64,000 nucleotides of DNA. Origin: a phage. Under the pieces are notes generated by a model. It made no database searches, was not told the origin of the DNA, and saw nothing but the letters and a program-made list of their open reading frames with translations. Each line of letters opens with the position of its first letter. Position 1 is the first letter of the stretch. Location of the stretch: the NCBI GenBank assembly GCA_012178725.1, contig GCA_012178725.1_3030.1, one strand, 5' to 3'. Position numbers and translations under genes: made by a program. Positions 1 to 52,253 of this stretch are shown here, piece by piece.

Positions 1-1821
1 ATGAACGTTAACGGTTCATTTGAATCATCCGGTGTTACTGCTGGAAATAGAGGAGTTCACACAACAGGCGAAATTTCATCTGGAGCAGTGAATGCTCTTC
101 GCATTTGGAATGCAGATTATGGAGCTATTTTTAGACGTTCAGAAGGTAGTCTTCATATTATTCCAACTGCTTATGGTGAAGGCAAAAATGGTGATATCGG
201 TCCACTTCGTCCATTTAGTATTGCTTTGGATACTGGTAAGGTTGTTATTCCAGATTTAGAATCAAGTTATAACACGTTTGCTGCAAATGGCTACATTAAA
301 TTTGCTGGTCATGGCGCTGGCGCTGGTGGTTATGATATTCAGTATTCACAAGCTGCTCCTATTTTCCAAGAAATTGATGACGACGCTGTAAGCAAATATT
401 ATCCTATTGTTAAACAGAAGTTTCTAAACGGTAAATCCGTTTGGTCTTTAGGTACTGAAATTAATTCGGGTACATTCGTTATTCATCATCTGAAAGAAGA
501 TGGATCGCAGGGCCATACATCTCGTTTTAATCAAGACGGTACTGTTAACTTCCCGGATAACGTTCAGGTCGGCGGCGGTGAAGCTACTATTGCTCGTAAT
601 GGTAACATCTGGTCTGATATCTGGAAAACGTTTACTTCAGCAGGCGACGTAACTAATATTCGCGATGCTATTGCTACTCGCGTTGCCAAAGAAGGCGACA
701 CGATGACCGGCACTCTTTGGATTAATAAAGATGCCGCTGGAATAGTTCTTAATCCTCCTTTGACCAGTGATTCATCATTTATTCGTTCTGATACGGCCGG
801 GGCCAATAATTGGTATATTGGTAAAGGCGGTGCCGACAATGGTCTAGGTTTTTACAGTTACATTACACAAGGCGGTGTATACATAACAAATACCGGTGAA
901 ATATCGCTTTCTCCTCAAGGACAAGGAACATTTAATTTTAATAGAGACCGCCTTTATATAAATGCTAGTCAATGGGTTGCACATAAATCTGGCGCTTGGG
1001 GCGACCAATGGGGCTTAGAAGCTCCTGTATTTGTGGATTTTGGTAGTGTCAGTAATGACTGCTATTATCCTATTATTAAAGGAAAATCTGGTATTACTAA
1101 CGAAGGATATTTTTCCGGCGTAGATTTTGGTATGCGACGCATTACTAATACATGGGCACAAGGTATTATTCGTGTAGGTAATCAGGAAAACGGTTCAGAC
1201 CCACAAGCCATCTATGAATTCCACAGTAACGGTACTTTTTATGCCCCTAGCCTACTTAAGAGCAACAGAGTATCAGCAGGTGGCGGTGACCCTGTATGGG
1301 CCGGGCCATGTATTGTTCTTGGCGATAATGACACAGGTCTAGTTTGGGAAGCAGATGGTATTTTCAACGCATATGCAAACGGCCAAGGTGTATTCAGTTT
1401 TAGAGCTGGTCTCGCACAAACATTCGGTAACGTAGCGTTAAACGTTAACGCAGGTATGTATGTTCGTGATAACATTGATGTTAACGACGTTTATATCCGT
1501 TCTGATATTCGTTGTAAGTCAGAAATTAAGCTTATTAAGAACGCTCAAGAGAAATCTAAACTCTTAGGCGGCTATACTTATCTGCTTAAAAACTCTGTTA
1601 CAGACGAAGTTAAACCATCTGCAGGTTTAATTGCTCAGGAAGTTCAAGAAGTATTGCCTGAACTTGTTTCTGAAGATAAAGAGACCGGACTGCTTCGTTT
1701 GAACTATAACGGTATTATCGGTTTAAATACTGCTACAATCAACGAGCATACAGATGAAATCAAGGAATTGAAATCTGAAATTGCCGAATTGAAAGCATTA
1801 ATTAAATCATTGATAAAATAA
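1..1821 (+). CDS. 37: Long tail fibre distal subunit gp37, C-terminal part (ORF runs off the 5' window edge), with a C-terminal intramolecular-chaperone-like module
   Basis: 606-aa frame open from base 1; C-terminal ...GGYTYLLKNS...GLIAQEVQEVLPELV... then a heptad-like tail; lies directly upstream of a gp38-type adhesin and holin t as in T-even phages. Confidence 0.75.
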   Translation: MNVNGSFESSGVTAGNRGVHTTGEISSGAVNALRIWNADYGAIFRRSEGSLHIIPTAYGEGKNGDIGPLRPFSIALDTGKVVIPDLESSYNTFAANGYIKFAGHGAGAGGYDIQYSQAAPIFQEIDDDAVSKYYPIVKQKFLNGKSVWSLGTEINSGTFVIHHLKEDGSQGHTSRFNQDGTVNFPDNVQVGGGEATIARNGNIWSDIWKTFTSAGDVTNIRDAIATRVAKEGDTMTGTLWINKDAAGIVLNPPLTSDSSFIRSDTAGANNWYIGKGGADNGLGFYSYITQGGVYITNTGEISLSPQGQGTFNFNRDRLYINASQWVAHKSGAWGDQWGLEAPVFVDFGSVSNDCYYPIIKGKSGITNEGYFSGVDFGMRRITNTWAQGIIRVGNQENGSDPQAIYEFHSNGTFYAPSLLKSNRVSAGGGDPVWAGPCIVLGDNDTGLVWEADGIFNAYANGQGVFSFRAGLAQTFGNVALNVNAGMYVRDNIDVNDVYIRSDIRCKSEIKLIKNAQEKSKLLGGYTYLLKNSVTDEVKPSAGLIAQEVQEVLPELVSEDKETGLLRLNYNGIIGLNTATINEHTDEIKELKSEIAELKALIKSLIK

Positions 1822-1851
1822 TAAAAGGGCCTTCGGGCCCTGGAGGTTTTT

Positions 1852-2631
1852 ATGGCAGTAGTAGGAATTCCTGGTTGGATTGGGACTTCAGCCGTCGCTG
1901 AAACAGGCCAGCGCTGGATGTCAGCGGCCTCTAGAGAATTGCGTCTAGGGAACCCATCTTGGATGTCACAATTCGCTGGACGCTCAAGAGAAATTATTCA
2001 CACGCTTGGAGCAGACCATAACTTCAATGGTCAATGGTTTCGTGACCGTTGTTTTGAAGCCGGCGGTGCTCCTATAGTGTTTAATATCACAGGCAACTTA
2101 GTATCATATTCTAAAGACGTTCCTTTATTCTTCATGTATGGTGATACTCCTAACGAATATGTTACTTTGAATATTCATGGTGGTGTTCATATGTGGGGCC
2201 GAGGTGGTAATGGTAGCGTAAATGGAAGCCCAGGCACTAATGGTGGCGACGTAATCCAAAATGATATTGGTGGACGACTTCGTATTTGGAACTATGGCGT
2301 TATTGCATCAGGCGGCGGCGGTGGTGGTGCAGTGTCATTACAGAATAGCTGGGCACCAAATGCTACAGCAGGTGGCGGTGGTGGTAGACCGTTTGGCATC
2401 GGCGGAGGCGGCGTTAATTGGCCGGGTGGTAATGCTAGTTATGACGCGCCTGGCGGTGCCGGTTACACTTCCCAATTCGGCGGAGGCAATGGCGGTGATG
2501 CTGGAGGTCGGGGTGGAGATGGATGGGGTAATCACTTATCTAGATCCGGCGGTGGTGCTCCAGGTAGAGCGGTATTCGGTTCTTCACCATCATGGGGTGC
2601 AACAGGCACGATCTACGGTTCCTGGATTTAA
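1852..2631 (+). CDS. 38: gp38 receptor-recognising adhesin (T2/T6 type) with glycine-rich motifs
   Basis: 259 aa; conserved N-terminus [11 protein letters not shown]...RWMS...[35 protein letters not shown] then poly-Gly blocks ([20 protein letters not shown]) separating short variable segments; 30 bp after gene 37 with GGAGG SD. Confidence 0.85.
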
Positions 2632-2650
2632 ATGGTAATACCTCTCAGCA

Positions 2651-2658
2651 TATAAATA
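2651..2658 (+). promoter_or_regulatory. Late promoter (TATAAATA) for holin t
   Basis: Exact TATAAATA 19 bp upstream of the t start, followed by AAGGAGG. Confidence 0.6.
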
Positions 2659-2676
2659 TCCTTAAAAGGAGGGTCT

Positions 2677-3333
2677 ATGGCAGCACCTAGAATATCATTT
2701 TCGCCCTCTGATATTCTATTTGGTGTTCTAGATCGCTTGTTCAAAGATAACGCTACCGGGAAAGTTCTTGCTTCCCGGGTAGCTGTCGTAATTCTTTTAT
2801 TTATGATGGCGATTGTTTGGTATAGGGGAGATAGTTTCTTTGAGTACTATAAGCAATCAAAGTATGAAACATACAGTGAAATTATTGAAAAGGAAAGAAA
2901 TGCACGCTTTGAATCTGTCGCCCTGGAACAACTCCAGATAGTTCACATATCATCTGAGGCAGACTTTAGTGCGGTGTATTCTTTCCGCCCTAAAAACTTA
3001 AACTATTTTGTTGATATTATAGCATACGAAGGAAGATTACCTTCAACAATAACTGAAAAATCACTTGGAGGATATCCTGTTGATAAAACTATGGATGAAT
3101 ATGCAGTTCATTTAAATGGACGTCATTATTATTCTGACTCAAAATTTGCTTTTTTACCAACTAAAAAGCCTACTCCCGAAATAAACTACATGTACAGTTG
3201 TCCATATTTTAATTTGGATAATATCTATGCTGGAACAATAACCATGTACTGGTATAGAAATGATCATATAAGTAATGACCGCCTTGAATCAATATGTGCT
3301 CAGGCGGCCAGAATATTAGGAAGGGCTAAATAA
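2677..3333 (+). CDS. t: Holin t
   Basis: 218 aa, near-identical to remembered T4 holin (MAAPRISFSPSDILFGVLDRLFKDNATGKVLASR...); one N-terminal TM segment; AAGGAGG SD and TATAAATA late promoter upstream. Confidence 0.95.
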   Translation: MAAPRISFSPSDILFGVLDRLFKDNATGKVLASRVAVVILLFMMAIVWYRGDSFFEYYKQSKYETYSEIIEKERNARFESVALEQLQIVHISSEADFSAVYSFRPKNLNYFVDIIAYEGRLPSTITEKSLGGYPVDKTMDEYAVHLNGRHYYSDSKFAFLPTKKPTPEINYMYSCPYFNLDNIYAGTITMYWYRNDHISNDRLESICAQAARILGRAK

Positions 3334-7806: not shown

Positions 7807-7959
7807 ATTAGTAGATAACAACACAAATGTTAAATATGCACACATACCCTGGGCTAAAGCTTGCGAAAACACGCTGCTGGCATCAATACAGATAGTTAAA
7901 ACACATGCTACTATCCAACAAATAAATGAAATAACTCCTAATAATTTTGCAATATTCAT
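7807..7959 (-). CDS. ac: Small membrane protein Ac (acridine sensitivity), 50 aa
   Basis: Hand-translated MNIAKLLGVISFICWIVACVLTICIDASSVFSQSFSPGYVCIFNICVVIY*; GAGGAAAAT SD overlaps stp stop; position between 52 and stp. Confidence 0.55.
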
Positions 7960-13820: not shown

Positions 13821-15640
13821 TACTGGCTCATCCATTCTTTACGAAGGTCAGCATTATCTCCCATGAGCATTTCAAAAAGCTCTTTCCAGTTCTCAGGAAG
13901 TTTAACAACATCATATACTGGATTTTGAATCATCTCACGATATTCAGATTTTTCCAAAGAGCCAAGTCCTTTAATATAACGGATGCTATGTTTAGGTAGA
14001 GCATCTTTGGCACTCTCATATTCAGCGACTGTATAAAACCATTCTTGTTTTTTACCGACCTGAGCGATGATTACAGGAGTTTTGACAAAGCGAATTCGTC
14101 CTTGCTCAAACAGTTCTGGCCAATTACTAAAAAATCCAAGAAGAGAAGGATAAATGCTTCCTAGACCATCATGGTCAGCATCAGTCATAATAGCAATATT
14201 ATGATAATTCAAGTTTTCAGCTTTTTCACCAAGAACTAGACCAGTGATTGCGCAAATATCAAACAGTTCTTTGTTTTTAAGCATATCTGCATAAGACATA
14301 CCCCAGCTATTAAGAACTTTACCACGCAATGGATAACCACCGTGAAGTTCTTTATCACGAACATCAATAAGATATCCGATAGCAGAATCACCCTCAGTCA
14401 AGAAAAGAGTAGTGTCAGCATCTTTACCGCAAAGATTCGCTTTGATATGTTTATGAACCTTAGCTTTAGAAGCCTTTTTAGCTGCTTTAGTTTCTGCTGC
14501 TTTTTCTGCCGCCAATTTACGAGCCAAAGCAGCTTCAATAATCGGCATTAGAATTGCTTCATTATTTAGAATAGCACGTGAAATCTTTTTAGCATCAAGT
14601 TGAATATGACTACGGATTTCACCAAATGGAGAAGTCAAACGCTCTTTAGTTTGAGAATCAAATCGCATGTTTTTCATATCACGAACAAACATAACGATAG
14701 TCAAACATTCTTTGACACGCGCTTTGGTTACATCAATTTTGAACTTACGTTTGATTTGTGGAATAAGGTCTTCACAAATATCATCCATAACACAGTCAAT
14801 GTGATGGCCACCATTCTTAGTATGAATGTTATTCACATAAGTTAATTGACGAAAACCATCCGGTGAACGACCAACTGCAATAGAACAATTTTCTTGTTCT
14901 TGAACGATAGCATGCTCATCATATTGGCGTGCATATTTCTTAAAATTACCCTGAACCTTTTTACCATTAAAGGTAAATTGAATATCAGGATAAACAACAG
15001 CAAGTGTCTGGAGACGATCTAGTGTAATGTCAAGATAAACTTGGGACAGCTCATTAGTTTCAAATGACATAAAATCAGGAATGAAAGTAACACGAGTTCC
15101 TTTCCATTTTCCTGGAATAGTTTCCCATGATTTATTTTCCATGCCATTTGAACAACGAACTACAATATTATTTTGACCATCGCCAGTTTCACCAACAAAC
15201 ATCACAGAAAAAATGTTAGTTAAACTAGAACCAACACCGTTCATACCGCCGGTGACGCGTTCTTTATCATCACCGAAGTTACCACCTGCTTTTGGAATAG
15301 TCCATGCAGCAACAGGACCAGGAATTTCTTCACCGGTAGGTGTTTTAACCATCGCTTGTGGAATACCGCGACCGTTATCTTCAACTGTTACTTGATTGTT
15401 TTTAATAGTAACGTTAATTTTATTTGCGAATTTAAACTTAGTACGAATACCTTCATCTACTGAGTTATCGATAATTTCATCAATAAGCTTAACAAGACCA
15501 GGTACATACTGAACACTTTCCCATTTACCAAACAGAAAGCGCTCATGCATTTCATTAGCAGAAGAACCAATGTACATGCCGCTACGCTTTTTGATATGTT
15601 CAATATCGCTCAGAATTTTAATTTCATTCTTAATCATCAC
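13820..15640 (-). CDS. 39: DNA topoisomerase II large subunit (GyrB-like ATPase), uninterrupted gene 39 (T4 39+60 equivalent)
   Basis: 606 aa; GHKL ATPase and TOPRIM-like motifs; one continuous frame with no gene 60 split. Confidence 0.95.
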   Translation of the reverse strand: MMIKNEIKILSDIEHIKKRSGMYIGSSANEMHERFLFGKWESVQYVPGLVKLIDEIIDNSVDEGIRTKFKFANKINVTIKNNQVTVEDNGRGIPQAMVKTPTGEEIPGPVAAWTIPKAGGNFGDDKERVTGGMNGVGSSLTNIFSVMFVGETGDGQNNIVVRCSNGMENKSWETIPGKWKGTRVTFIPDFMSFETNELSQVYLDITLDRLQTLAVVYPDIQFTFNGKKVQGNFKKYARQYDEHAIVQEQENCSIAVGRSPDGFRQLTYVNNIHTKNGGHHIDCVMDDICEDLIPQIKRKFKIDVTKARVKECLTIVMFVRDMKNMRFDSQTKERLTSPFGEIRSHIQLDAKKISRAILNNEAILMPIIEAALARKLAAEKAAETKAAKKASKAKVHKHIKANLCGKDADTTLFLTEGDSAIGYLIDVRDKELHGGYPLRGKVLNSWGMSYADMLKNKELFDICAITGLVLGEKAENLNYHNIAIMTDADHDGLGSIYPSLLGFFSNWPELFEQGRIRFVKTPVIIAQVGKKQEWFYTVAEYESAKDALPKHSIRYIKGLGSLEKSEYREMIQNPVYDVVKLPENWKELFEMLMGDNADLRKEWMSQ

Positions 15641-18110: not shown

Positions 18111-18611
18111 CTAGCTTACACGAACATTAATCACTGCGCTGCGAGGAACTACAGAGTACTCTCCAGCATGAACTACGTTCAGAAGTTCAACACCATCTTC
18201 AATCCACTGATCAGTTACCCAACCGCCAATCGGATTCGCGAATGGACGACGAATATAAACTGCCTTACACAACAAATCAGTCGGGTCTTCAATTTTTTCA
18301 ACTGGTGTTACATACATAGAAACTAAATCCATATCAATATGGGATTTTTCTTGTTCTTCTTTTTCAATTTCTGTCAATAAATTGAAATCTTCTTCATAGA
18401 TGATGAATGATGATACCCTTCCATAATAGTTTCTAATTTCCATGTACACTGTACCAATGAGAATTCCGCTATTAACACTAATAACAGTAAAAGGATATCC
18501 GCCAGTTGTACCAAGAAGTTCCCAAAACTTGCTATCAGTCGTATTCGACATTGTCTGGAAATCAATTTCAGATGGTTTTTTCATTTGATACGTAGTATTA
18601 ATTTTAATCAT
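18111..18611 (-). CDS. MotB paralog
   Basis: 166 aa; C-terminal ...GGWVTDQWIEDGVELLNVVHAGEYSVVPRS vs MotB ...AYITDQWVEDGVKLYNAVFLGTYKVIPES. Confidence 0.55.
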   Translation of the reverse strand: MIKINTTYQMKKPSEIDFQTMSNTTDSKFWELLGTTGGYPFTVISVNSGILIGTVYMEIRNYYGRVSSFIIYEEDFNLLTEIEKEEQEKSHIDMDLVSMYVTPVEKIEDPTDLLCKAVYIRRPFANPIGGWVTDQWIEDGVELLNVVHAGEYSVVPRSAVINVRVS

Positions 18612-18620
18612 AATTTTCCT

Positions 18621-19133
18621 TTAATCTAAGGTAATAAAGCCTTTTAATTCGGCATGCGATTTGCGAAACATTACTTGATGCCCACCAATGATAACTTGAT
18701 CATCTGGCACTTCATAAATCGCAATGTACATTCCACGATCTTTTAAGTCTTCACGCTCTTCTCGAGTAAACCATCTCATTATATCATATTCACTAGCGAA
18801 AGCAAAATGATATAATGCAATAAACCACAATGGAATATAATTTTCAATTCGTGAATAATCTTTATTCCATTTAGTTTTAATAGCATCATTAGCATTTTCA
18901 ACTAATAACTTATCATCGTGCGGAATAGGAATACTTTCATGACTTTCATAATTATCGCTATGATGATGAAATGACGATGAATTAATACCGCAAAATTTTA
19001 GCCAAGTTCGAGTTTTCATAGAATCAAATCCACGATAAGGAGTTGATTGAACACATAACTCTTGCCTAATTTTCATTATACCACTATCATCATTTAATGC
19101 GCTAAACGATGATTCAACACGATAAATTTTCAT
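18621..19133 (-). CDS. Hypothetical protein
   Basis: 170 aa from internal ATG (MKIYRVESS...) with GAGGATAATAAA SD. Confidence 0.5.
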   Translation of the reverse strand: MKIYRVESSFSALNDDSGIMKIRQELCVQSTPYRGFDSMKTRTWLKFCGINSSSFHHHSDNYESHESIPIPHDDKLLVENANDAIKTKWNKDYSRIENYIPLWFIALYHFAFASEYDIMRWFTREEREDLKDRGMYIAIYEVPDDQVIIGGHQVMFRKSHAELKGFITLD

Positions 19134-20375: not shown

Positions 20376-20414
20376 ATTTAATCAATAATTTACAGACACT
20401 TTCATCTAGTGTAA

Positions 20415-20606
20415 TTACCGTATCTGTATTACTGTGATATGATTGTTTTCAATTCGTTTAATTGCTAATATAGTATCACTTATAAGATAAAGCTTATGAA
20501 GGAGCTCAGCTCCTGTTACCATAACATTAAGATTATCTTGCTTATTAGTATGCTTCCTTATACCATCTATTAGACGATTTAAATATTTTGAATTGATGTT
20601 AATCAT
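20415..20606 (-). CDS. Hypothetical protein
   Basis: 63-aa ORF upstream of dda. Confidence 0.4.
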   Translation of the reverse strand: MININSKYLNRLIDGIRKHTNKQDNLNVMVTGAELLHKLYLISDTILAIKRIENNHITVIQIR

Positions 20607-20612
20607 ATATCC

Positions 20613-26813: not shown

Positions 26814-26858
26814 ATAAATTCTCGCGGCTTTTAAGTCGTCGTTTATTTAAACGAGCTA

Positions 26859-27377
26859 TTAATAGCCTCGGTCTTGACGAGCGAAATTTTCAGCATTTTT
26901 CAGATAATAAAGTTTAAATATTTCTTCAGCTGACATTCCAAGAGCAATAAATTTATTCATGAAAAAGTGAAATTGGTCAATCAGTTCAAATTTAATTTCA
27001 AGCTGATCTTCAGGAGATAAGTCTTGAATTTTCTTGGATTGCATTTCAGAATAACGTTTCTTCCAAGGTTTCCATACGGCAGAAGCTTCTTTTTCACCAT
27101 TACTCATACCACCAAGAGAAGTATATAGCTCGCGAGTTTCATCTGCGATATAATCGTCTTGGTTTCGCAACCAAGCAAGAACTTCTCCTGCAGTTTCAAG
27201 TGAATCAGGATGACGATTTGTTTCTGGTTTATCATTAGCCAAACGAATCTGTAAATGCCGCTGCATATCAAGCATAACCTGCAGTGGGTCAATATTGTGC
27301 ATAATATTCTCAGCATATGCACGAGTTGCTTTATCAACACCTTCGATCAAATGAGCGCATTCATTAAAGTGAGCCAT
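26859..27377 (-). CDS. 56: dCTP pyrophosphatase gp56 (MazG-like)
   Basis: 172 aa from internal ATG (MAHFNECAHLIEGVDKA...); track ORF N-terminally extended; MotA-box middle promoter upstream. Confidence 0.88.
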   Translation of the reverse strand: MAHFNECAHLIEGVDKATRAYAENIMHNIDPLQVMLDMQRHLQIRLANDKPETNRHPDSLETAGEVLAWLRNQDDYIADETRELYTSLGGMSNGEKEASAVWKPWKKRYSEMQSKKIQDLSPEDQLEIKFELIDQFHFFMNKFIALGMSAEEIFKLYYLKNAENFARQDRGY

Positions 27378-27411
27378 TATTTTTCCTTTCAATTCATGGG
27401 TTAGTAGATTA

Positions 27412-27437
27412 ATTATACAATAAATATATAAAGCAAT
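27412..27437 (-). promoter_or_regulatory. Candidate middle promoter upstream of gene 56
   Basis: Minus strand TTGCTTTA - 11 nt - TATAAT. Confidence 0.45.
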
Positions 27438-27448
27438 AAGGAGGACAT

Positions 27449-27649
27449 ATGGTACAAAAATTAATGGCACTTGTTAATGCCATAAAAGGTAATAAAAAAC
27501 GTATAGCTTTTACTATTTCTGCTATGGTAGGAATTTTACTCTGGAACTTTATTCTATCACCTGTTGCAATTGCACATGGTATTAATATTCCAGTAGTTAC
27601 TCTTGATACATTTGTAGATTTAGCATTTGCTTTAGTTGGGTTGATTTAA
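27449..27649 (+). CDS. Small membrane protein (plus strand), 66 aa
   Basis: Strong SD AAGGAGGACAT-ATG; two hydrophobic segments; occupies the 56-61 interval. Confidence 0.45.
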   Translation: MVQKLMALVNAIKGNKKRIAFTISAMVGILLWNFILSPVAIAHGINIPVVTLDTFVDLAFALVGLI

Positions 27650-29200: not shown

Positions 29201-29246
29201 TTAATCTCTATTCATAAAAGCATTAAAAATTTGGTCATCAATAGAA
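29201..29246. repeat. 46-bp direct repeat, copy 2 (3' end of the 61.2-like ORF)
   Basis: ttaatctctattcataaaagcattaaaaatttggtcatcaataga. Confidence 0.8.
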
Positions 29247-29827
29247 ACATTTACTTTAGACTGTTTTTCAGATGGCAATTCATATCCACATATTACAATT
29301 TTATGATCAATATCAAAATACACAGAAGCAATATGATTAATGATATTTTCAGTGAAGTCTAAATCGACATCAATATCTTTTTGACCAAAGCCCAAAGGAT
29401 AAATAATGCGAGTAATTCGATTATCTTTAACAAAGATTCCACCGACATACTCTGTACTGCGTTTAAAGTCTACACGCCGACGAAATGAAAAATATTCAGG
29501 CTCTTTATGAGCTCGGCTCATAGGACACAACGAATAACTAGAATAAGAGATGTCAAATCCTACGCCTTCGATATGAGCCAAAGTGTCATGATTAAACCAA
29601 TTATAATCGTACGCCAAATCCATTAGATTATAATATGTAAAAGGCACCGGATTAACATCATTAGTCACAAGCATGTAATTAGCAACTGCTATAATTTCAT
29701 TGTTTTTAACGAATACAAACCGTGATTGATGCGAATGACCTGGACCCGCGTTTTCACGATTAATGATATAACACTGGGCACCTTTATATTTGTATGTATC
29801 TTTGCACTTGTGCATTTGATAGAGCAT
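29201..29827 (-). CDS. Hypothetical protein (61.2-like)
   Basis: 208-aa ORF between sp and gene 61. Confidence 0.5.
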   Translation of the reverse strand: MLYQMHKCKDTYKYKGAQCYIINRENAGPGHSHQSRFVFVKNNEIIAVANYMLVTNDVNPVPFTYYNLMDLAYDYNWFNHDTLAHIEGVGFDISYSSYSLCPMSRAHKEPEYFSFRRRVDFKRSTEYVGGIFVKDNRITRIIYPLGFGQKDIDVDLDFTENIINHIASVYFDIDHKIVICGYELPSEKQSKVNVSIDDQIFNAFMNRD

Positions 29828-32117: not shown

Positions 32118-32480
32118 TTAAAAGAATTTAAATTTTTTCTTTGACCTTTTATTAAATGCATCTTGCAGTTGCATTGTAATACATTTTTCTACATGAGGAG
32201 CTAACTCAGCTTTTCTTTCTTGGTCAAGAACAGCAAAGTCCATTACGACTTTTCCATCAACCCAATCTAATTTTGTCACATACACAATGTGTGTAGAACC
32301 ATCTTCTAGTTTAATGACAATCTCCTGGATAACATTTTCCATGGCAGATTTAATTATCTTAAGAGATTCATTAAAAAGACGTTCTTTTCTTTCTTCTTCC
32401 CCCTCCGAAGAGGGGGATTCATCGATAATTTCTAGATCTAAATCTAAATCATCTTTATTCATTAAATTCTTCCATATCAC
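32118..32480 (-). CDS. 40: gp40 head vertex assembly chaperone (positional)
   Basis: 120-aa ORF between uvsX and 41; overlaps uvsX 3' end. Confidence 0.6.
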   Translation of the reverse strand: MIWKNLMNKDDLDLDLEIIDESPSSEGEEERKERLFNESLKIIKSAMENVIQEIVIKLEDGSTHIVYVTKLDWVDGKVVMDFAVLDQERKAELAPHVEKCITMQLQDAFNKRSKKKFKFF

Positions 32481-33636
32481 TTAACTGTTCGAGGTCAGTT
32501 TCTAAATCAGCAGCTGATTTACTTTTACTTTCTGGAGATTTAAATTTTTCAACCTTTGAGTTAATCAATTCATCAACTTCAGCTTCAACAATTTCATTAC
32601 TATCAATAGCACCTAACTGATAAGCACGTTTAATAGCATCTCGGAATGGTTGATGCTTAAATAAAGGACCCCAGAATGTAGTGCAGTTGGTATCTTTTGC
32701 ACGCCAAGATTTTTCTTCGCGAATCATCTCGCCGGTTTCTTCGTCAAGAAATTCACGAGCATACCAACCATTCTTAGGTTTTACTACAAATCCTAATTCT
32801 AGAGCCATATCTAACAATCCAGAATAAGGATCGATACCACCGTCAAATTTAACATCAATAAAGAATTTACTTTTTTCTTTAACGGTACGAGATTTTTCTA
32901 CATTTAGAACAAATTGATACCCTTGAAGATCAGAACCATCTTTAATCTGACGCTTACCGATAATGAATACGGTATCAGCCGAATACATTACGCCTGTACC
33001 ACCTGTCATCACGGTTTTACTAAACATTTCAATTGTTTCAATTGTATGGTTAACCGCAACACATGGAATATTTTTAATGCTAAAGTAAGGAGTAACAATA
33101 CGGAATAATGACTTCAGTGATTTAGCACGAGTCATATCTGCCACAGATTTTTCATTCAAGGCATCTTCCGTTTCTTTCTTAGAAGCCATATTACCAATTG
33201 AGTCGATGAATACTATAACCTTTTCACCACGCTCAATAGCTTCAAGCTGATTCACCATATCAATTTTCAGCTGTTCAACTGATTGAATTGGCGTATGAAT
33301 TACACGTTCCGGGTCAACTCCCATGGATCGCAAATAAGCTGGAGTAATACCAAATTCGCTATCATAGAATAGACAAACTGCGTCAGGATATTTGTTCAAA
33401 TATGCCGCAACCATAGTCAAAGACATATTTGATTTAAAGTGTTTAGAAGGCCCTGCGAAAATAGTTAAACCAGACTGCATACCGCCATCAATCGCACCAG
33501 AAATAGCAATATTAAGCATTGGGATTTTTGTACGGATTACATCCTTTTCATTAAAGAATTTAGATGTAGTCAGTTCAGCAGTCATTTTAGAAGTGGAAGC
33601 TTTAATCAAACGGGATTTTAAATCTGCAATAGACAT
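32455..33636 (-). CDS. uvsX: UvsX recombinase (RecA-like)
   Basis: 393 aa; RecA fold motifs (GPSKHFKS Walker A); N-terminus resembles T4 UvsX. Confidence 0.95.
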   Translation of the reverse strand: MSIADLKSRLIKASTSKMTAELTTSKFFNEKDVIRTKIPMLNIAISGAIDGGMQSGLTIFAGPSKHFKSNMSLTMVAAYLNKYPDAVCLFYDSEFGITPAYLRSMGVDPERVIHTPIQSVEQLKIDMVNQLEAIERGEKVIVFIDSIGNMASKKETEDALNEKSVADMTRAKSLKSLFRIVTPYFSIKNIPCVAVNHTIETIEMFSKTVMTGGTGVMYSADTVFIIGKRQIKDGSDLQGYQFVLNVEKSRTVKEKSKFFIDVKFDGGIDPYSGLLDMALELGFVVKPKNGWYAREFLDEETGEMIREEKSWRAKDTNCTTFWGPLFKHQPFRDAIKRAYQLGAIDSNEIVEAEVDELINSKVEKFKSPESKSKSAADLETDLEQLSDMEEFNE

Positions 33637-33713
33637 TCATTTTTTCCATAGGCATCATTATATTTTCCTCACTGGTTAAAGATAGAGTAATTATAACACA
33701 ATAAATTTAGGCA

Positions 33714-34562
33714 TTAATCAACTGCTATTGGATGAATAGCATTAAACTTATGAAATGCTTCTGATTTTTCTTTACGAGAAACACACATGCGAAGAACCTT
33801 TAATGGCTCGTCTTCTTCACCCAACGATTTTCGTTTTTCAATATTAGAAGTTTTCCAACGAGCTTGCTCTGGAAACTCTCTATTGATTTGCTCAAGCGCT
33901 CTATTATGTTTAGAATTACTACGAATTGAACTGCACCCGCCAGGAGCTTGTGCTTTTCCAGATACAACCAGATATTTGAACAAGGCCAAATGCGGATAAC
34001 CTTGATTAATTAAATTGAGAAATGCATACATATCTTCGCATAAATCAATTTTTCCATACCCAATTTGTTCTGTCGTAAGTTTTCCGAGATCATACCATGT
34101 ATTCGTGAATCCATATGAATTTTCACGATAATTACCCCAAGATGAAGTAATTTTAAAAATAGGTAGACGAGCATGGCCATGATAATACCCACAATCCATG
34201 GCATCCTCAACATATTGAATCAATTCATAGAACTGTTCACGAGTCAATTGATTGACTTTATCCACACAACGACGATCATCTCTTTTTCGCATTGAACTCA
34301 TACGAATAGTAGTATCATCGTCAATCATCCAGATTCGTTGACCTGCATACATATCAGTAATTGCTTTACGAGTACCAGCAATTCCATTTACATCATCAGG
34401 AATAGTTATAATTTTAGCTCTAGACCCATAGGCATCATAATAAGCTTTTTCTTCGTGTTCACGCACTACAATATGGGGTTCATAATCAGTCGGAAACATA
34501 TCAAGGGCAGAAACTGCCCCAACACGCTGATAACTTGGAATTACGAATTGAATCATTTCCAC
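33714..34562 (-). CDS. Putative hydroxymethylcytosine-DNA glycosyltransferase (DxD-containing, GT-A-like) at the beta-gt position
   Basis: 282 aa; ...RIWMIDDDTTIRM... DxD motif; sits between uvsX and 42 where T4 has the 351-aa beta-gt. Confidence 0.5.
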   Translation of the reverse strand: MEMIQFVIPSYQRVGAVSALDMFPTDYEPHIVVREHEEKAYYDAYGSRAKIITIPDDVNGIAGTRKAITDMYAGQRIWMIDDDTTIRMSSMRKRDDRRCVDKVNQLTREQFYELIQYVEDAMDCGYYHGHARLPIFKITSSWGNYRENSYGFTNTWYDLGKLTTEQIGYGKIDLCEDMYAFLNLINQGYPHLALFKYLVVSGKAQAPGGCSSIRSNSKHNRALEQINREFPEQARWKTSNIEKRKSLGEEDEPLKVLRMCVSRKEKSEAFHKFNAIHPIAVD

Positions 34563-35293
34563 TCACCGTTATAATCTTTTTTCACAATATGAGTTTCGCC
34601 AGTATTCCACCAATGATCAACCAAGTAAAAATGACGAGAATATACATGAAGACTTCCAACATTCCATATAATAGAACCTGCTTTATACTGACGAGTTGAA
34701 TCGCCTGCATTCAAATCAGATACTAATTTATCTAATACGTATTTTTGCCATGCATAATCATTACGGAATCCGAAGACCACGTCATTTGAGCGCATGTTAA
34801 CAACCGCATTGATTTTCTTGTCACGAATCAGATACTGTACGGTATTCGTACACATGAAATCTGACATGCCATCTTTATTGTAGTCAAATTGCATGGATGG
34901 ACGAGTATAAATCATGATACCACGTCGAGAATCAGGATTTTGACCAAGTTCAGCTAAACACATATCATATTGAGCATAGTTATCTTCTGACCAGATAGCC
35001 CAACCATAATTCGAGTTAATTTCACCTTTAGAAGATGCTACTTGTTGCCAAATCTTCGGTGTTTCACCCGGAATATCTTTAACGAACAAGCTCTTAGATT
35101 TATACCATTCAAGTTCACGCTGAATGTATTCATCATTAAGAGCGCCAAAAATAAACGGTTCATCTGCTATAAATGATGCGCCAATAATTTCAATAGTTTT
35201 AACGCCAGTTTTATCAACTACGAAATCTTTTTCTTTTAATGCAAGCCCCAAATGAAGACGGATTTCTTCAACTGTCATAGAGTCACTAATCAT
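34553..35293 (-). CDS. 42: dCMP hydroxymethylase gp42
   Basis: 246 aa; thymidylate-synthase-like fold; T4 gp42 size. Confidence 0.95.
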   Translation of the reverse strand: MISDSMTVEEIRLHLGLALKEKDFVVDKTGVKTIEIIGASFIADEPFIFGALNDEYIQRELEWYKSKSLFVKDIPGETPKIWQQVASSKGEINSNYGWAIWSEDNYAQYDMCLAELGQNPDSRRGIMIYTRPSMQFDYNKDGMSDFMCTNTVQYLIRDKKINAVVNMRSNDVVFGFRNDYAWQKYVLDKLVSDLNAGDSTRQYKAGSIIWNVGSLHVYSRHFYLVDHWWNTGETHIVKKDYNGEWK

Positions 35294-35446
35294 TTAAACC
35301 TCAATTGATACATTCATATTTAACTTGTAACAGTAATAAACCCCAACCTAAAATAATAGTTGGAATCATAAGAGGAACCGTTACACTATAGTATATACTT
35401 ATTATAACCATCAAGATTAAAAGCAACACTGCTATAATTTTGCTTT

Positions 35447-35698
35447 TCATTCTTTCTCTCTGATGATAATTACCTGATTTGGATGTGCAGACTTTTTGGT
35501 TTCACCCGCAATTGACCAAATGAATGTAATAAACCAACCAATAATTGACCAATTAAACAGTAAAGATGTGAAAAAGATTCCTACTGTCGATTTTGACCCA
35601 CGCATCAAGGCGATAAACCATGGAAGCATGTATATAATAATAGCCAACACACCTGAAACTAAAACCATAAAAATTGAACCTGCTACTAAAGTTTCCAT
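35447..35698 (-). CDS. imm: Superinfection immunity protein Imm
   Basis: 83 aa, two TM helices; T4 Imm size and position. Confidence 0.88.
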   Translation of the reverse strand: METLVAGSIFMVLVSGVLAIIIYMLPWFIALMRGSKSTVGIFFTSLLFNWSIIGWFITFIWSIAGETKKSAHPNQVIIIREKE

Positions 35699-44329: not shown

Positions 44330-45184
44330 TCACAATGAAGAAAATTCTTTAACTAAAGCCTGTAATGAAGCCTCTATTGGATATCCATTCTTAACTAACA
44401 TTTTCCTAAACATTACATGTTTAGGACGATTATATGATATCCACAATTCATACAATTTATCTTTATTATCCCAATGATAGCCTTTTCGTCGAGATGCTAT
44501 ATGAGCTTTTCTAATCTCCGGATTTTTCCAACTAGCAGCTACTGAATTTGATATAGCTATTTTATATTCAGGTTTTGATAAAGCAGCACGAACAGCCTTT
44601 TGGTGTTTAATTTTATTTTCTTCGTTATTAAACCATTCCCTTGAAGCCATTGAAATTTTTTGTTTTGTTTTAAAATTATTTAATCTTTCTTTATTATCTT
44701 TCCTATTTTTTGCTACTGAAAAATATTTTAATGCCCTTTCTCTAGCAGCATTTCTATTTTGCGGATTTGAATAATACTGTTGAAGCCTTTTTGATATTGT
44801 GTCACTTACATCTTGTTTTATAAAACTATATTCAGCAGCTATTAAATCAACTTCGGCTAAAGATAAATTTTTATATGTTTTTCCTGACATCATTCTATTT
44901 AAAGCATTTAGCATTTTTCCATTTTTACCTTTTGCTAATAAGAAGTGTGCTTTAAAATGATTAAAATGACTTAAATTAACTAAATTCCATGTAGATTTTA
45001 AATATTCAGGAAATATTGATTTAGGAAGCACGTGGTGTGCTTCCGTTTTACCTGGAGTTTTAACAGTTGAATTCACAGAAATAAAATTAATGTAAGACTT
45101 GGCGTCTTCTTCACTCAACGCTAATTTTTCAACTAATTCCTTTATTAAAAATTCATCATTAATGTCAAGTTTAAAATTCTTCAC
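44330..45184 (-). CDS. Free-standing HNH homing endonuclease (mob-like) with C-terminal basic repeat motifs
   Basis: 284 aa, GTG start with AAGGAA SD; EAHHVLPKSIF...NLVNLSHFNHFKAH HNH core; repeated ...KPEYKIAISNS / ...WKNPEIRKAHIAS... DNA-binding-like motifs. Confidence 0.7.
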   Translation of the reverse strand: MKNFKLDINDEFLIKELVEKLALSEEDAKSYINFISVNSTVKTPGKTEAHHVLPKSIFPEYLKSTWNLVNLSHFNHFKAHFLLAKGKNGKMLNALNRMMSGKTYKNLSLAEVDLIAAEYSFIKQDVSDTISKRLQQYYSNPQNRNAARERALKYFSVAKNRKDNKERLNNFKTKQKISMASREWFNNEENKIKHQKAVRAALSKPEYKIAISNSVAASWKNPEIRKAHIASRRKGYHWDNKDKLYELWISYNRPKHVMFRKMLVKNGYPIEASLQALVKEFSSL

Positions 45185-46823: not shown

Positions 46824-48026
46824 TTATTTTGTAATAATGTCAAACTGTTCTTTAAAGCAGAAGCTTGAATCTTGATGCTGATACAAAAATTCATAAGCTT
46901 TTTCGCGTTCGCGGTCATAAAGAGTTCGATCAGATGACAGTTCTTTAATACGTTCAAATGTTGATTCCATGTCATTTTCATCAAACCAAATGATACCGCT
47001 ATCATGCGAGGTCAAAGGAGTATTATCAACACGGAATTTTAAATTTTCGCCAGTAGATTTCCAAAATACCGGAATTGTTCCACATGCACCAAGCTCGAGA
47101 TGAGTATATTCTAAAGAACGTTGTAGATATTTTTTATCCAACTTACTCAACTGATAACCAAAACCGGATTTACTCATACGTTCAAGCATTTCGCTATTTA
47201 CATAACGGTCAAGAATTTGCGTTGGCAAATTAGGAGCAATTTTAATTTGGTCTACTTGATGAAGACGATAATACTCGTATGGAATTCCTTTTTCTTTAAT
47301 AGGAATGAACGCTGGAGAACGTTCCAGACCTTCCATAATAGTACTTAGTCCTGCAGGTTTAAGATGTTTTTCATGAAAATCAAACATCTGATAAAAACCT
47401 TTCCATGTAGTCGTACGACCAATCCAACGGTTGATATTCATGTTAATTTCAGAAACATCTTTCCAGTAGGTTGATCGAACCTTCGCAATATCCATCGGAG
47501 GTTGAAAGTTATATACTGTCGGTGCTTCTTCAATATCATCAAACAGAGAAACTGTTTCAGGATACCATTCTTTCATCAGAACTTTATTAAAATCACCATT
47601 ATCAGAATGGCTAAAAATAACATCAGCTCGACGAACAGTTTCTTCTAATCCCAAATTTCGGCGCAAAGAAAGAGAAGAATGGTCATGTTGATAAACTACA
47701 ACACGAACAGAAGGTTTAATGTTATCAATAATTTTTTTATAGTTATTAATAGTGTCTTCTTCAACCGAAGTAGCAGGAACTGAATTGATAATTAGAATAT
47801 CACAATCATTTACCAGCTTAAGTGTTTTATCATATTCTTTTGCCAATAAAACCGGAATTGAAAATGATTTATAATCATGCGCGCAATTACGAGTAAATGA
47901 TTTATCTTTAGCATAAACCAAAGTTACTTCATGACCATTCTTAATAAACCAATCACGTTGCTCAAGAGAAAATTTAGTTACACCACAACCTTCAAGACCT
48001 CGAGCCATAAAAATACATACTTTCAT
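46824..48026 (-). CDS. agt: DNA alpha-glucosyltransferase
   Basis: 400 aa; N-terminus M.ICIFMARGLEGCGVTKFSLEQRDWFIKNGHEV matches remembered T4 alpha-gt. Confidence 0.88.
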   Translation of the reverse strand: MKVCIFMARGLEGCGVTKFSLEQRDWFIKNGHEVTLVYAKDKSFTRNCAHDYKSFSIPVLLAKEYDKTLKLVNDCDILIINSVPATSVEEDTINNYKKIIDNIKPSVRVVVYQHDHSSLSLRRNLGLEETVRRADVIFSHSDNGDFNKVLMKEWYPETVSLFDDIEEAPTVYNFQPPMDIAKVRSTYWKDVSEINMNINRWIGRTTTWKGFYQMFDFHEKHLKPAGLSTIMEGLERSPAFIPIKEKGIPYEYYRLHQVDQIKIAPNLPTQILDRYVNSEMLERMSKSGFGYQLSKLDKKYLQRSLEYTHLELGACGTIPVFWKSTGENLKFRVDNTPLTSHDSGIIWFDENDMESTFERIKELSSDRTLYDREREKAYEFLYQHQDSSFCFKEQFDIITK

Positions 48027-49520: not shown

Positions 49521-49598
49521 TTTCACCTCTTAGCTCAATTCATAGATCTATTATATCATAATATTTGAAGATCTATCTTAAAGCATAGAGGATATCAG

Positions 49599-49868
49599 TT
49601 ATCTAAGTAAACAGTATGCTTGGAATACTTTCTCCATCATCTTTTTAAATTCATGAATATCTATATAATGACTAGTTAGATCAGCATGATATAAAAAGTC
49701 TAAAAACTTTTCATGTGTACTAACATATTCACTTTCATTTAATTCAGAAACATGGCTTTCCCAATATCCAACACCAGTCTTATTTGGGAAAAATGAAATT
49801 TTCATGTATTGGTCAACATAGAAAATGCCATAATTTTCAATAGTAATAGAAATATTAATAAATTTCAT
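49599..49868 (-). CDS. Hypothetical protein
   Basis: 89-aa ORF. Confidence 0.45.
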   Translation of the reverse strand: MKFINISITIENYGIFYVDQYMKISFFPNKTGVGYWESHVSELNESEYVSTHEKFLDFLYHADLTSHYIDIHEFKKMMEKVFQAYCLLR

Positions 49869-51428: not shown

Positions 51429-51752
51429 TTAGTCTTCTATGATATCTCTATCATATCCAAGTGAAATGAGAGTTTCTTTGAAGTGTTTAATGTTCTTTTG
51501 TCTGGAATCATTAATGAAAATGACTGGATAACGAATGTTAAGAGATGTGAATCCAGCGCGTTTAGCAAGAGATACAATCAGTTGACGATCATACTCAATC
51601 TTACCATTATTAGTAAGAACTTTATAAAAAGTAAAAGGAACATTGAGCTCCTTTAGAAGTTTTGTAACTGATTGACATCCAGGACAACGACCTACTTCAT
51701 CTGGAATTCCATAGACTTCAATCTTATTCTTTAAGTTCGAGTTTTGTTCCAC
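51429..51752 (-). CDS. nrdH: Glutaredoxin-like protein (NrdH-like, CPGC active site)
   Basis: ...IEVYGIPDEVGRCPGCQSVTKLL... redox motif; start uncertain (GTG chosen; track ORF extends to 51881); next to nrdG. Confidence 0.5.
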   Translation of the reverse strand: MEQNSNLKNKIEVYGIPDEVGRCPGCQSVTKLLKELNVPFTFYKVLTNNGKIEYDRQLIVSLAKRAGFTSLNIRYPVIFINDSRQKNIKHFKETLISLGYDRDIIED

Positions 51753-52035
51753 GAGAAATAATTCCTTGGTAAGCCCAATAAGGAGGATTAACAGAATCCT
51801 CACCAGAGTTTTCTTCAGGAAAATAAACCTGGATAACGAAGCCGGATTCATCAAAGGTAAAATAAACCGTAGGCAGTTCACCTAACAAATCGGCACGAGC
51901 GTTGATTTCTTCGAGGTCTTGTTCACGTCCAGCCCAGAAGCTTGGGTTCAGACTACATTCATAGAAATAATAGTCATTACCGAACATATCAAAACCATTC
52001 CAACTCTCTACTACATACCGCTCAAAACTAATCAT
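51724..52035 (-). CDS. Hypothetical acidic protein
   Basis: 103-aa ORF. Confidence 0.5.
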   Translation of the reverse strand: MISFERYVVESWNGFDMFGNDYYFYECSLNPSFWAGREQDLEEINARADLLGELPTVYFTFDESGFVIQVYFPEENSGEDSVNPPYWAYQGIISRGTKLELKE

Positions 52036-52037
52036 AA

Positions 52038-52253
52038 TTAATCCTTTTTATCAAGAACCGCATTCAGCTTGTTAGTAATTTTATCCAGACGCTCATTGAA
52101 CTCACTAGAAGATAAGCCCTTTTCTGGAGAAATTAAACTAATCACGAAAAATATAGCAATAAAAGGAATAAGGAAAATAGCTCCAACTGCCATAAACAGA
52201 AAGAATGTTACAGTTGTAAGAAAATCAGCTAAACCTTTACGAAATTTATACAT
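52038..52253 (-). CDS. Small membrane protein
   Basis: 71 aa; hydrophobic TTVTFFLFMAVGAIFLIPFIAIFFVISL. Confidence 0.45.
   Translation of the reverse strand: MYKFRKGLADFLTTVTFFLFMAVGAIFLIPFIAIFFVISLISPEKGLSSSEFNERLDKITNKLNAVLDKKD

Follow-up and report, generated by a model that had tools for sequence, protein, structure and literature searches.

A probable T2/T6-type beta-glucosyl-HMC-alpha-glucosyltransferase gene in the T4 beta-gt slot of a phage with the T-even gene order

Introduction

Which enzyme is encoded where phage T4 carries its beta-glucosyltransferase gene, in a phage that also has an alpha-glucosyltransferase, and what would it do to the phage's DNA? The sugar pattern on 5-hydroxymethylcytosine (hmC) decides which host defences see phage DNA; such defences include McrBC, GmrSD/BrxU-type enzymes, the Brig1/Brig3 glycosylases and the BapA deglucosylase (doi 10.1093/nar/gkag531; 10.64898/2026.02.25.707755; PMC13390438). 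The DNA of T2 and T6 contains beta-1,6-glucosyl-alpha-glucosyl (gentiobiosyl) hmC, at levels of 5% and 72%, made by homologous ba-gt enzymes (PMC6024577). Deletion of the T6 gene (g-gt) gives DNA with about 75% alpha-glucosyl-5hmC (bioRxiv 10.64898/2026.02.25.707755). Natural Tequatrovirus phages that combine an alpha-GT with a TET-associated glycosyltransferase (TAGT) at the position syntenic to T4 beta-GT have alpha-gentiobiosyl-hmC and no beta-glucosyl-hmC, as determined by HPLC/MS (PMC13390438). Here we describe the corresponding gene in a 64,000-nucleotide stretch of phage DNA, which we refer to throughout as the window.

Results

The order of genes in this part of the window is 41, 40, uvsX, ba-gt, 42, imm, imm.1, 43 ... 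47, alpha-gt, which is that of the T-even map. The ba-gt coding sequence (also g-gt or TAGT; 33714..34556, minus strand) is flanked downstream by uvsX (32455..33636, minus strand), which defines the locus on that side, and upstream by gene 42 (34553..35293, minus strand), which it overlaps. The same interval of T4 (NC_000866) reads uvsX, segA, b-gt (351 aa), 42. In the window no segA separates uvsX from ba-gt, and a tblastn search with T4 SegA gave no match within the 64 kb.

A preliminary description of this DNA placed a non-T4 ORF of 282 aa with a DxD signature at the beta-gt locus; its location and motif hold, and its length probably does not. The sequence RIWMIDDDTTIRM is indeed found within a 282-aa minus-strand ORF that opens with a GTG at 34562 (33714..34562). 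The start is nevertheless probably the ATG at 34556, which would yield 280 aa. This ATG is the third codon of the longer frame (34556..34554) and forms an ATGA overlap with the TGA of gene 42 (34555..34553). Within the junction of the two genes (34553..34567, minus strand), it is preceded by a GGTGA Shine-Dalgarno match (34567..34563) and a 6-nt spacer, and the same junction sequence is found in T2 and T6. We rejected the GTG start: the GGTGA match would abut it, and the 280-aa form, starting at the ATG, is the one given in the curated annotations of T2 and QOTSP. Translation of ba-gt is most likely coupled to that of gene 42 through the ATGA overlap, and it is from this overlap only that we infer co-expression of the two genes. 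A promoter scan of 33500..35500 returned 12 sites against 9.8 expected from shuffled sequence, which is no excess.

Two small features of this interval deserve mention in their own right. Some 36 nt past its start codon, the ba-gt coding sequence contains a GC-rich hairpin of 7 bp (GGGGCAG-TTT-CTGCCCT; 34504..34520, minus strand) with a T-rich tract behind it; T2 and T6 have an identical hairpin, which may be due to chance. In the gap between imm and gene 42 there is a hydrophobic ORF of 49 aa (MKSKIIAVLLLILMVIISIYY..., 35301..35450, minus strand), the ATG of which overlaps the TGA of imm in an ATGA. The frame is also open in T2, T4 and T6, where it is conserved, the substitutions being conservative, and none of these records annotates it.

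The partner genes were described beforehand as intact and T4-like. The alpha-gt gene, for a DNA alpha-glucosyltransferase (46824..48026, minus strand), matches Pfam AGT (PF11440) with 786 bits; its product differs from that of T2 at 1 residue, from that of T6 at 34 and from that of T4 at 35. The product of gene 42, the dCMP hydroxymethylase that supplies the hmC precursor, matches Pfam Thymidylat_synt (59 bits) and is 97.2% identical to T4 gp42. The hmC pathway is further represented by gene 56, for a dCTPase/dUTPase (26859..27470, minus strand; its start is approximate, the T2 CDS being 519 bp): blastn aligns window positions 26826..27437 with T2 positions 14599..15213, annotated there as gene 56, at 95.3% identity. 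T4 b-gt, used as a tblastn query, has no match anywhere in the 64-kb window, which hence combines alpha-gt and gene 42 with the absence of a T4-type beta-gt.

We also note a homing-endonuclease-like ORF between genes 46 and 47 (44700..45100, minus strand; phrog_655, E=6e-30) that is 32% identical to T4 MobB over 98 aa; the slot beside alpha-gt that mobB occupies in T4 is empty here, with no T4 MobB match.

The ba-gt protein itself belongs to a recognizable family. It matches Pfam PF20691 (TAGT) with 38.9 bits, against a gathering threshold of 27.5 bits, over profile positions 2-205 of 205, and PF20691 is also found on its homologs. It matches phrog_842, ‘beta-glucosyl-HMC-alpha-glucosyltransferase’, with 299 bits across residues 1-275. 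[quoted passage not shown] The protein of phage vB_Eco_QOTSP (OY720014) differs at a single residue (D24N). In nucleotide sequence, the gene matches its counterpart in phage Ptacy1496 (PQ863253) at 100% identity, and 475 records match it at 90% or more. When the protein was used as a tblastn query against deposited phages, 689 records matched, 472 of them at 95% identity or more; these last are mostly Tequatrovirus phages of Escherichia, Shigella and Yersinia, annotated as carrying beta-glucosyl-HMC-alpha-glucosyltransferase. A diverged T4 beta-gt was considered and rejected: the best BLASTP E value was 2.2, and no PF09198 match was obtained at E<=1. NCBIfam has no model for the protein, and a sequence search of the PDB found no relative (best E=1.6, to an irrelevant PNPOx domain).

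Over the 10 kb around ba-gt, identity is 99.1% with Ptacy1496 and 97.7% with T2. Farther away the window departs from T2 in several places. By blastn, nothing in T2 matches positions 1..2276, where the C-terminal part of gp37 and the beginning of gp38 are encoded; therefore the receptor-binding tip differs from that of T2. The gp38 ORF (1852..2631) encodes a glycine-rich adhesin of the T2/T6 style, 259 aa long. Also absent from T2 by blastn are 18113..19091, 20385..20612, 29211..29825, 49594..49853 and 51729..52052. These stretches hold small ORFs, of 166 and 183 aa near motB/dexA and of 63, 208, 89 and 103 aa; the 208-aa ORF has a C-terminal DDQIFNAFMNR motif in common with a 118-aa neighbour.

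The DxD signature had suggested a GT-A-like enzyme, a view that the predicted structure upholds. The motif, a putative metal/UDP-sugar-binding site, corresponds to D79-D80-D81 (34314..34322, minus strand; codons GAC GAT GAT). It is invariant in a 10-sequence alignment that extends down to roughly 30% identity, and it directly follows a predicted beta strand at residues 74-77 (pLDDT about 88). The conserved DxD thus comes after the fourth beta strand, as in GT2-like GT-A enzymes, and the model consists of what appears to be a single Rossmann-like nucleotide-binding domain resembling solved enzymes of that fold. GT-A/GT2 enzymes are matched by the predicted structure as a whole, its neighbours being GT2 glycosyltransferases of polysaccharide and teichoic-acid synthesis. 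Confidence in this AlphaFold model is moderate (mean pLDDT 69.7), with residues 126-151 unmodelled. That segment, HGHARLPIFKITSSWGNYRENSYGFT (34104..34181, minus strand), has a pLDDT of about 30, although few parts of the protein are better conserved across the family; it could be a loop that binds DNA or the acceptor and becomes ordered only on the substrate. GT2 enzymes are inverting, and their catalysis depends on a divalent metal. An inverting GT2-like mechanism would fit this protein, because a beta linkage would be formed from UDP-alpha-glucose. An independent AF3 analysis of the T6 TAGT agrees with the GT-A/GT2 fold (NAR 2026, doi 10.1093/nar/gkag531).

Discussion

We conclude that the gene very probably encodes a T2/T6-type beta-glucosyl-HMC-alpha-glucosyltransferase (ba-gt, g-gt, TAGT), which adds a second glucose to glucosylated phage DNA. 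This reading joins what we observe in the gene itself, namely its identity, synteny, family membership, motif conservation and predicted fold, with a chemistry that we infer from the near-identical enzymes that have been studied. We envisage a short pathway: gp42 and gp56 would ensure that DNA is synthesized with 5-hydroxymethylcytosine; alpha-gt would then put alpha-glucose onto most of the hmC residues, creating the acceptor for the second glucose; and the DxD enzyme of predicted GT-A fold would use UDP-glucose to add that second glucose, beta-1,6 on the first, yielding alpha-gentiobiosyl-hmC.

It is extremely improbable that the target of this glycosyltransferase is not DNA but, for instance, a polysaccharide of the host envelope. 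The idea draws on the polysaccharide and teichoic-acid enzymes among its structural neighbours, but the gene is probably coupled in translation to its neighbour, gene 42, inside a cluster for DNA modification and replication, and deletion of the T6 ortholog alters DNA modification. Somewhat less remote, and still very unlikely, is a TAGT-family enzyme of another specificity, one that would take a different sugar donor or act directly on bare hmC. The family is certainly diverse, since some homologs accompany a beta-GT and others occur alone, in phages that have neither alpha- nor beta-GT, so that specificities must differ (NAR 2026, doi 10.1093/nar/gkag531). Those homologs are distant ones, however, whereas the protein described here shares about 99% of its residues with the enzymes of T2 and T6 and is a single residue away from that of QOTSP, a phage whose DNA has been measured to contain gentiobiosyl-hmC.

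A third alternative concerns how far the T2/T6-type reaction would proceed. The enzyme could be the same and yet weakly effective, as in T2, so that the DNA would carry mostly mono-alpha-glucosyl-hmC and a few percent of gentiobiosyl-hmC. The kinship with T2 speaks for such an outcome: the 10-kb region has 97.7% of its positions in common with that phage, the alpha-gt is much closer to that of T2 (1 difference) than to that of T6 (34), and T2 itself reaches only about 5%. We nonetheless judge it improbable. Neither of the T2-specific substitutions occurs here; R11 is invariant in the family, and P251 is conserved in at least 90%. The N-terminal 40 residues of T2 ba-gt, H11 included, are found exactly in only 8 of 682 records, all from T2/SV76. 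The QOTSP enzyme, the nearest of the three to ours, works in a phage whose DNA is about one-third hmC and two-thirds gentiobiosyl-hmC (PMC13390438). Finally, the window is without dam, like T6 and the high-gentiobiosyl Durham group (PMC13390438), although this is a correlation only. Searches by tblastn with T2 dam and the adjacent T2_032 ORF gave no match in the 64 kb. The site of their absence is the junction 27437/27438, between gene 56 and gene 61.

We accordingly return to effective gentiobiosylation, and expect, with modest confidence, that gentiobiosyl-hmC would be a major species in this phage, at a level nearer that of T6 than that of T2, and that between about a quarter and a third of hmC would be left bare. 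A high level is anticipated because the protein has the family-consensus residue wherever T2 or T6 deviates, and because it is one residue from the QOTSP allele.

The laboratory alleles call for comment. In T2, R11H replaces the family-invariant arginine, which adjoins an IPSY motif (codon 11 is at 34524..34526 in the window), and P251S falls at the second of the conserved positions mentioned above; it is possible, judging from the sequences, that one or other lies behind the low gentiobiosylation of T2 (about 5%). As to T6, record MH550421 has TAG for CAG at ba-gt codon 10 (about 7951..7953) and is annotated with a 261-aa remnant, while in record AP018814 (CDS 2135..2974) an in-frame deletion of 3 bp shortens the invariant DDD to DD and leaves 279 aa. 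Both T6 lesions may have arisen in the stocks or may be errors of sequencing. Laboratory stocks of T2 and T6 may thus carry impaired ba-gt alleles. We offer only tentatively, and with more doubt than belief, the broader proposal that the window has the intact consensus (‘wild-type’) allele and that the alleles of the classical laboratory phages are damaged or hypomorphic. If R11H does explain the value of about 5%, then the decades-old difference between T2 and T6 would come down to a single substitution in a laboratory lineage, and full gentiobiosylation would be the default in phages of this kind.

The combination of alpha-gt with an intact ba-gt predicts T6-like DNA, that is, with gentiobiosyl-hmC, some bare hmC and no beta-glucosyl-hmC. 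Such a prediction would be useful for estimating host range and for choosing restriction enzymes.

Comparison with known systems

The pairing of an alpha-GT with this second transferase is ordinary in Tequatrovirus. Most glucosylating phages combine an alpha-GT or a beta-GT with a TAGT, and the alpha plus beta pair of T4 is rare (NAR 2026, doi 10.1093/nar/gkag531). Alpha-GT with TAGT is the common, majority state in Tequatrovirus and T4-like coliphages, and it is the T4 arrangement that is the exception. Both the enzyme and its genomic setting are already known, and we claim no new biology for them.

The T2 and T6 ba-gt genes, reportedly cloned by Winkler and Rueger in 1993, encode an enzyme (also ggt or g-gt) that we take to be EC 2.4.1.28. 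They resemble the gene in the window in length (280 aa), in position between uvsX and 42, in the ATGA junction and in their partners alpha-gt and 42. They differ in that T2 (H11, S251) and T6 (N40, G55, H106) depart from the family consensus at residues where the gene in the window follows it, and in that the reading frame in the window is intact whereas the two public T6 records carry either the amber codon or the DDD-to-DD deletion. From the TAGT genes of the natural Tequatrovirus phages QOTSP and Ptacy1496 there is essentially no difference at this locus. Within PF20691 at large, the DDD motif and the GT-A-like predicted fold are held in common, in a GT-A superfamily that stands next to GT2; the protein is, however, a divergent member (38.9 bits), and it is accompanied by gene 42 and alpha-gt, not by a TET/JBP-type oxygenase. 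T4 beta-glucosyltransferase (PF09198) occupies the same genomic slot and likewise makes a beta-glucoside on phage DNA from UDP-glucose, but there is no sequence similarity, its fold is GT-B where that predicted here is GT-A, and it uses bare hmC as acceptor where ba-gt would use alpha-glucosyl-hmC. The ba-gt of this phage and the b-gt of T4 are analogous occupants of one locus, not homologs.
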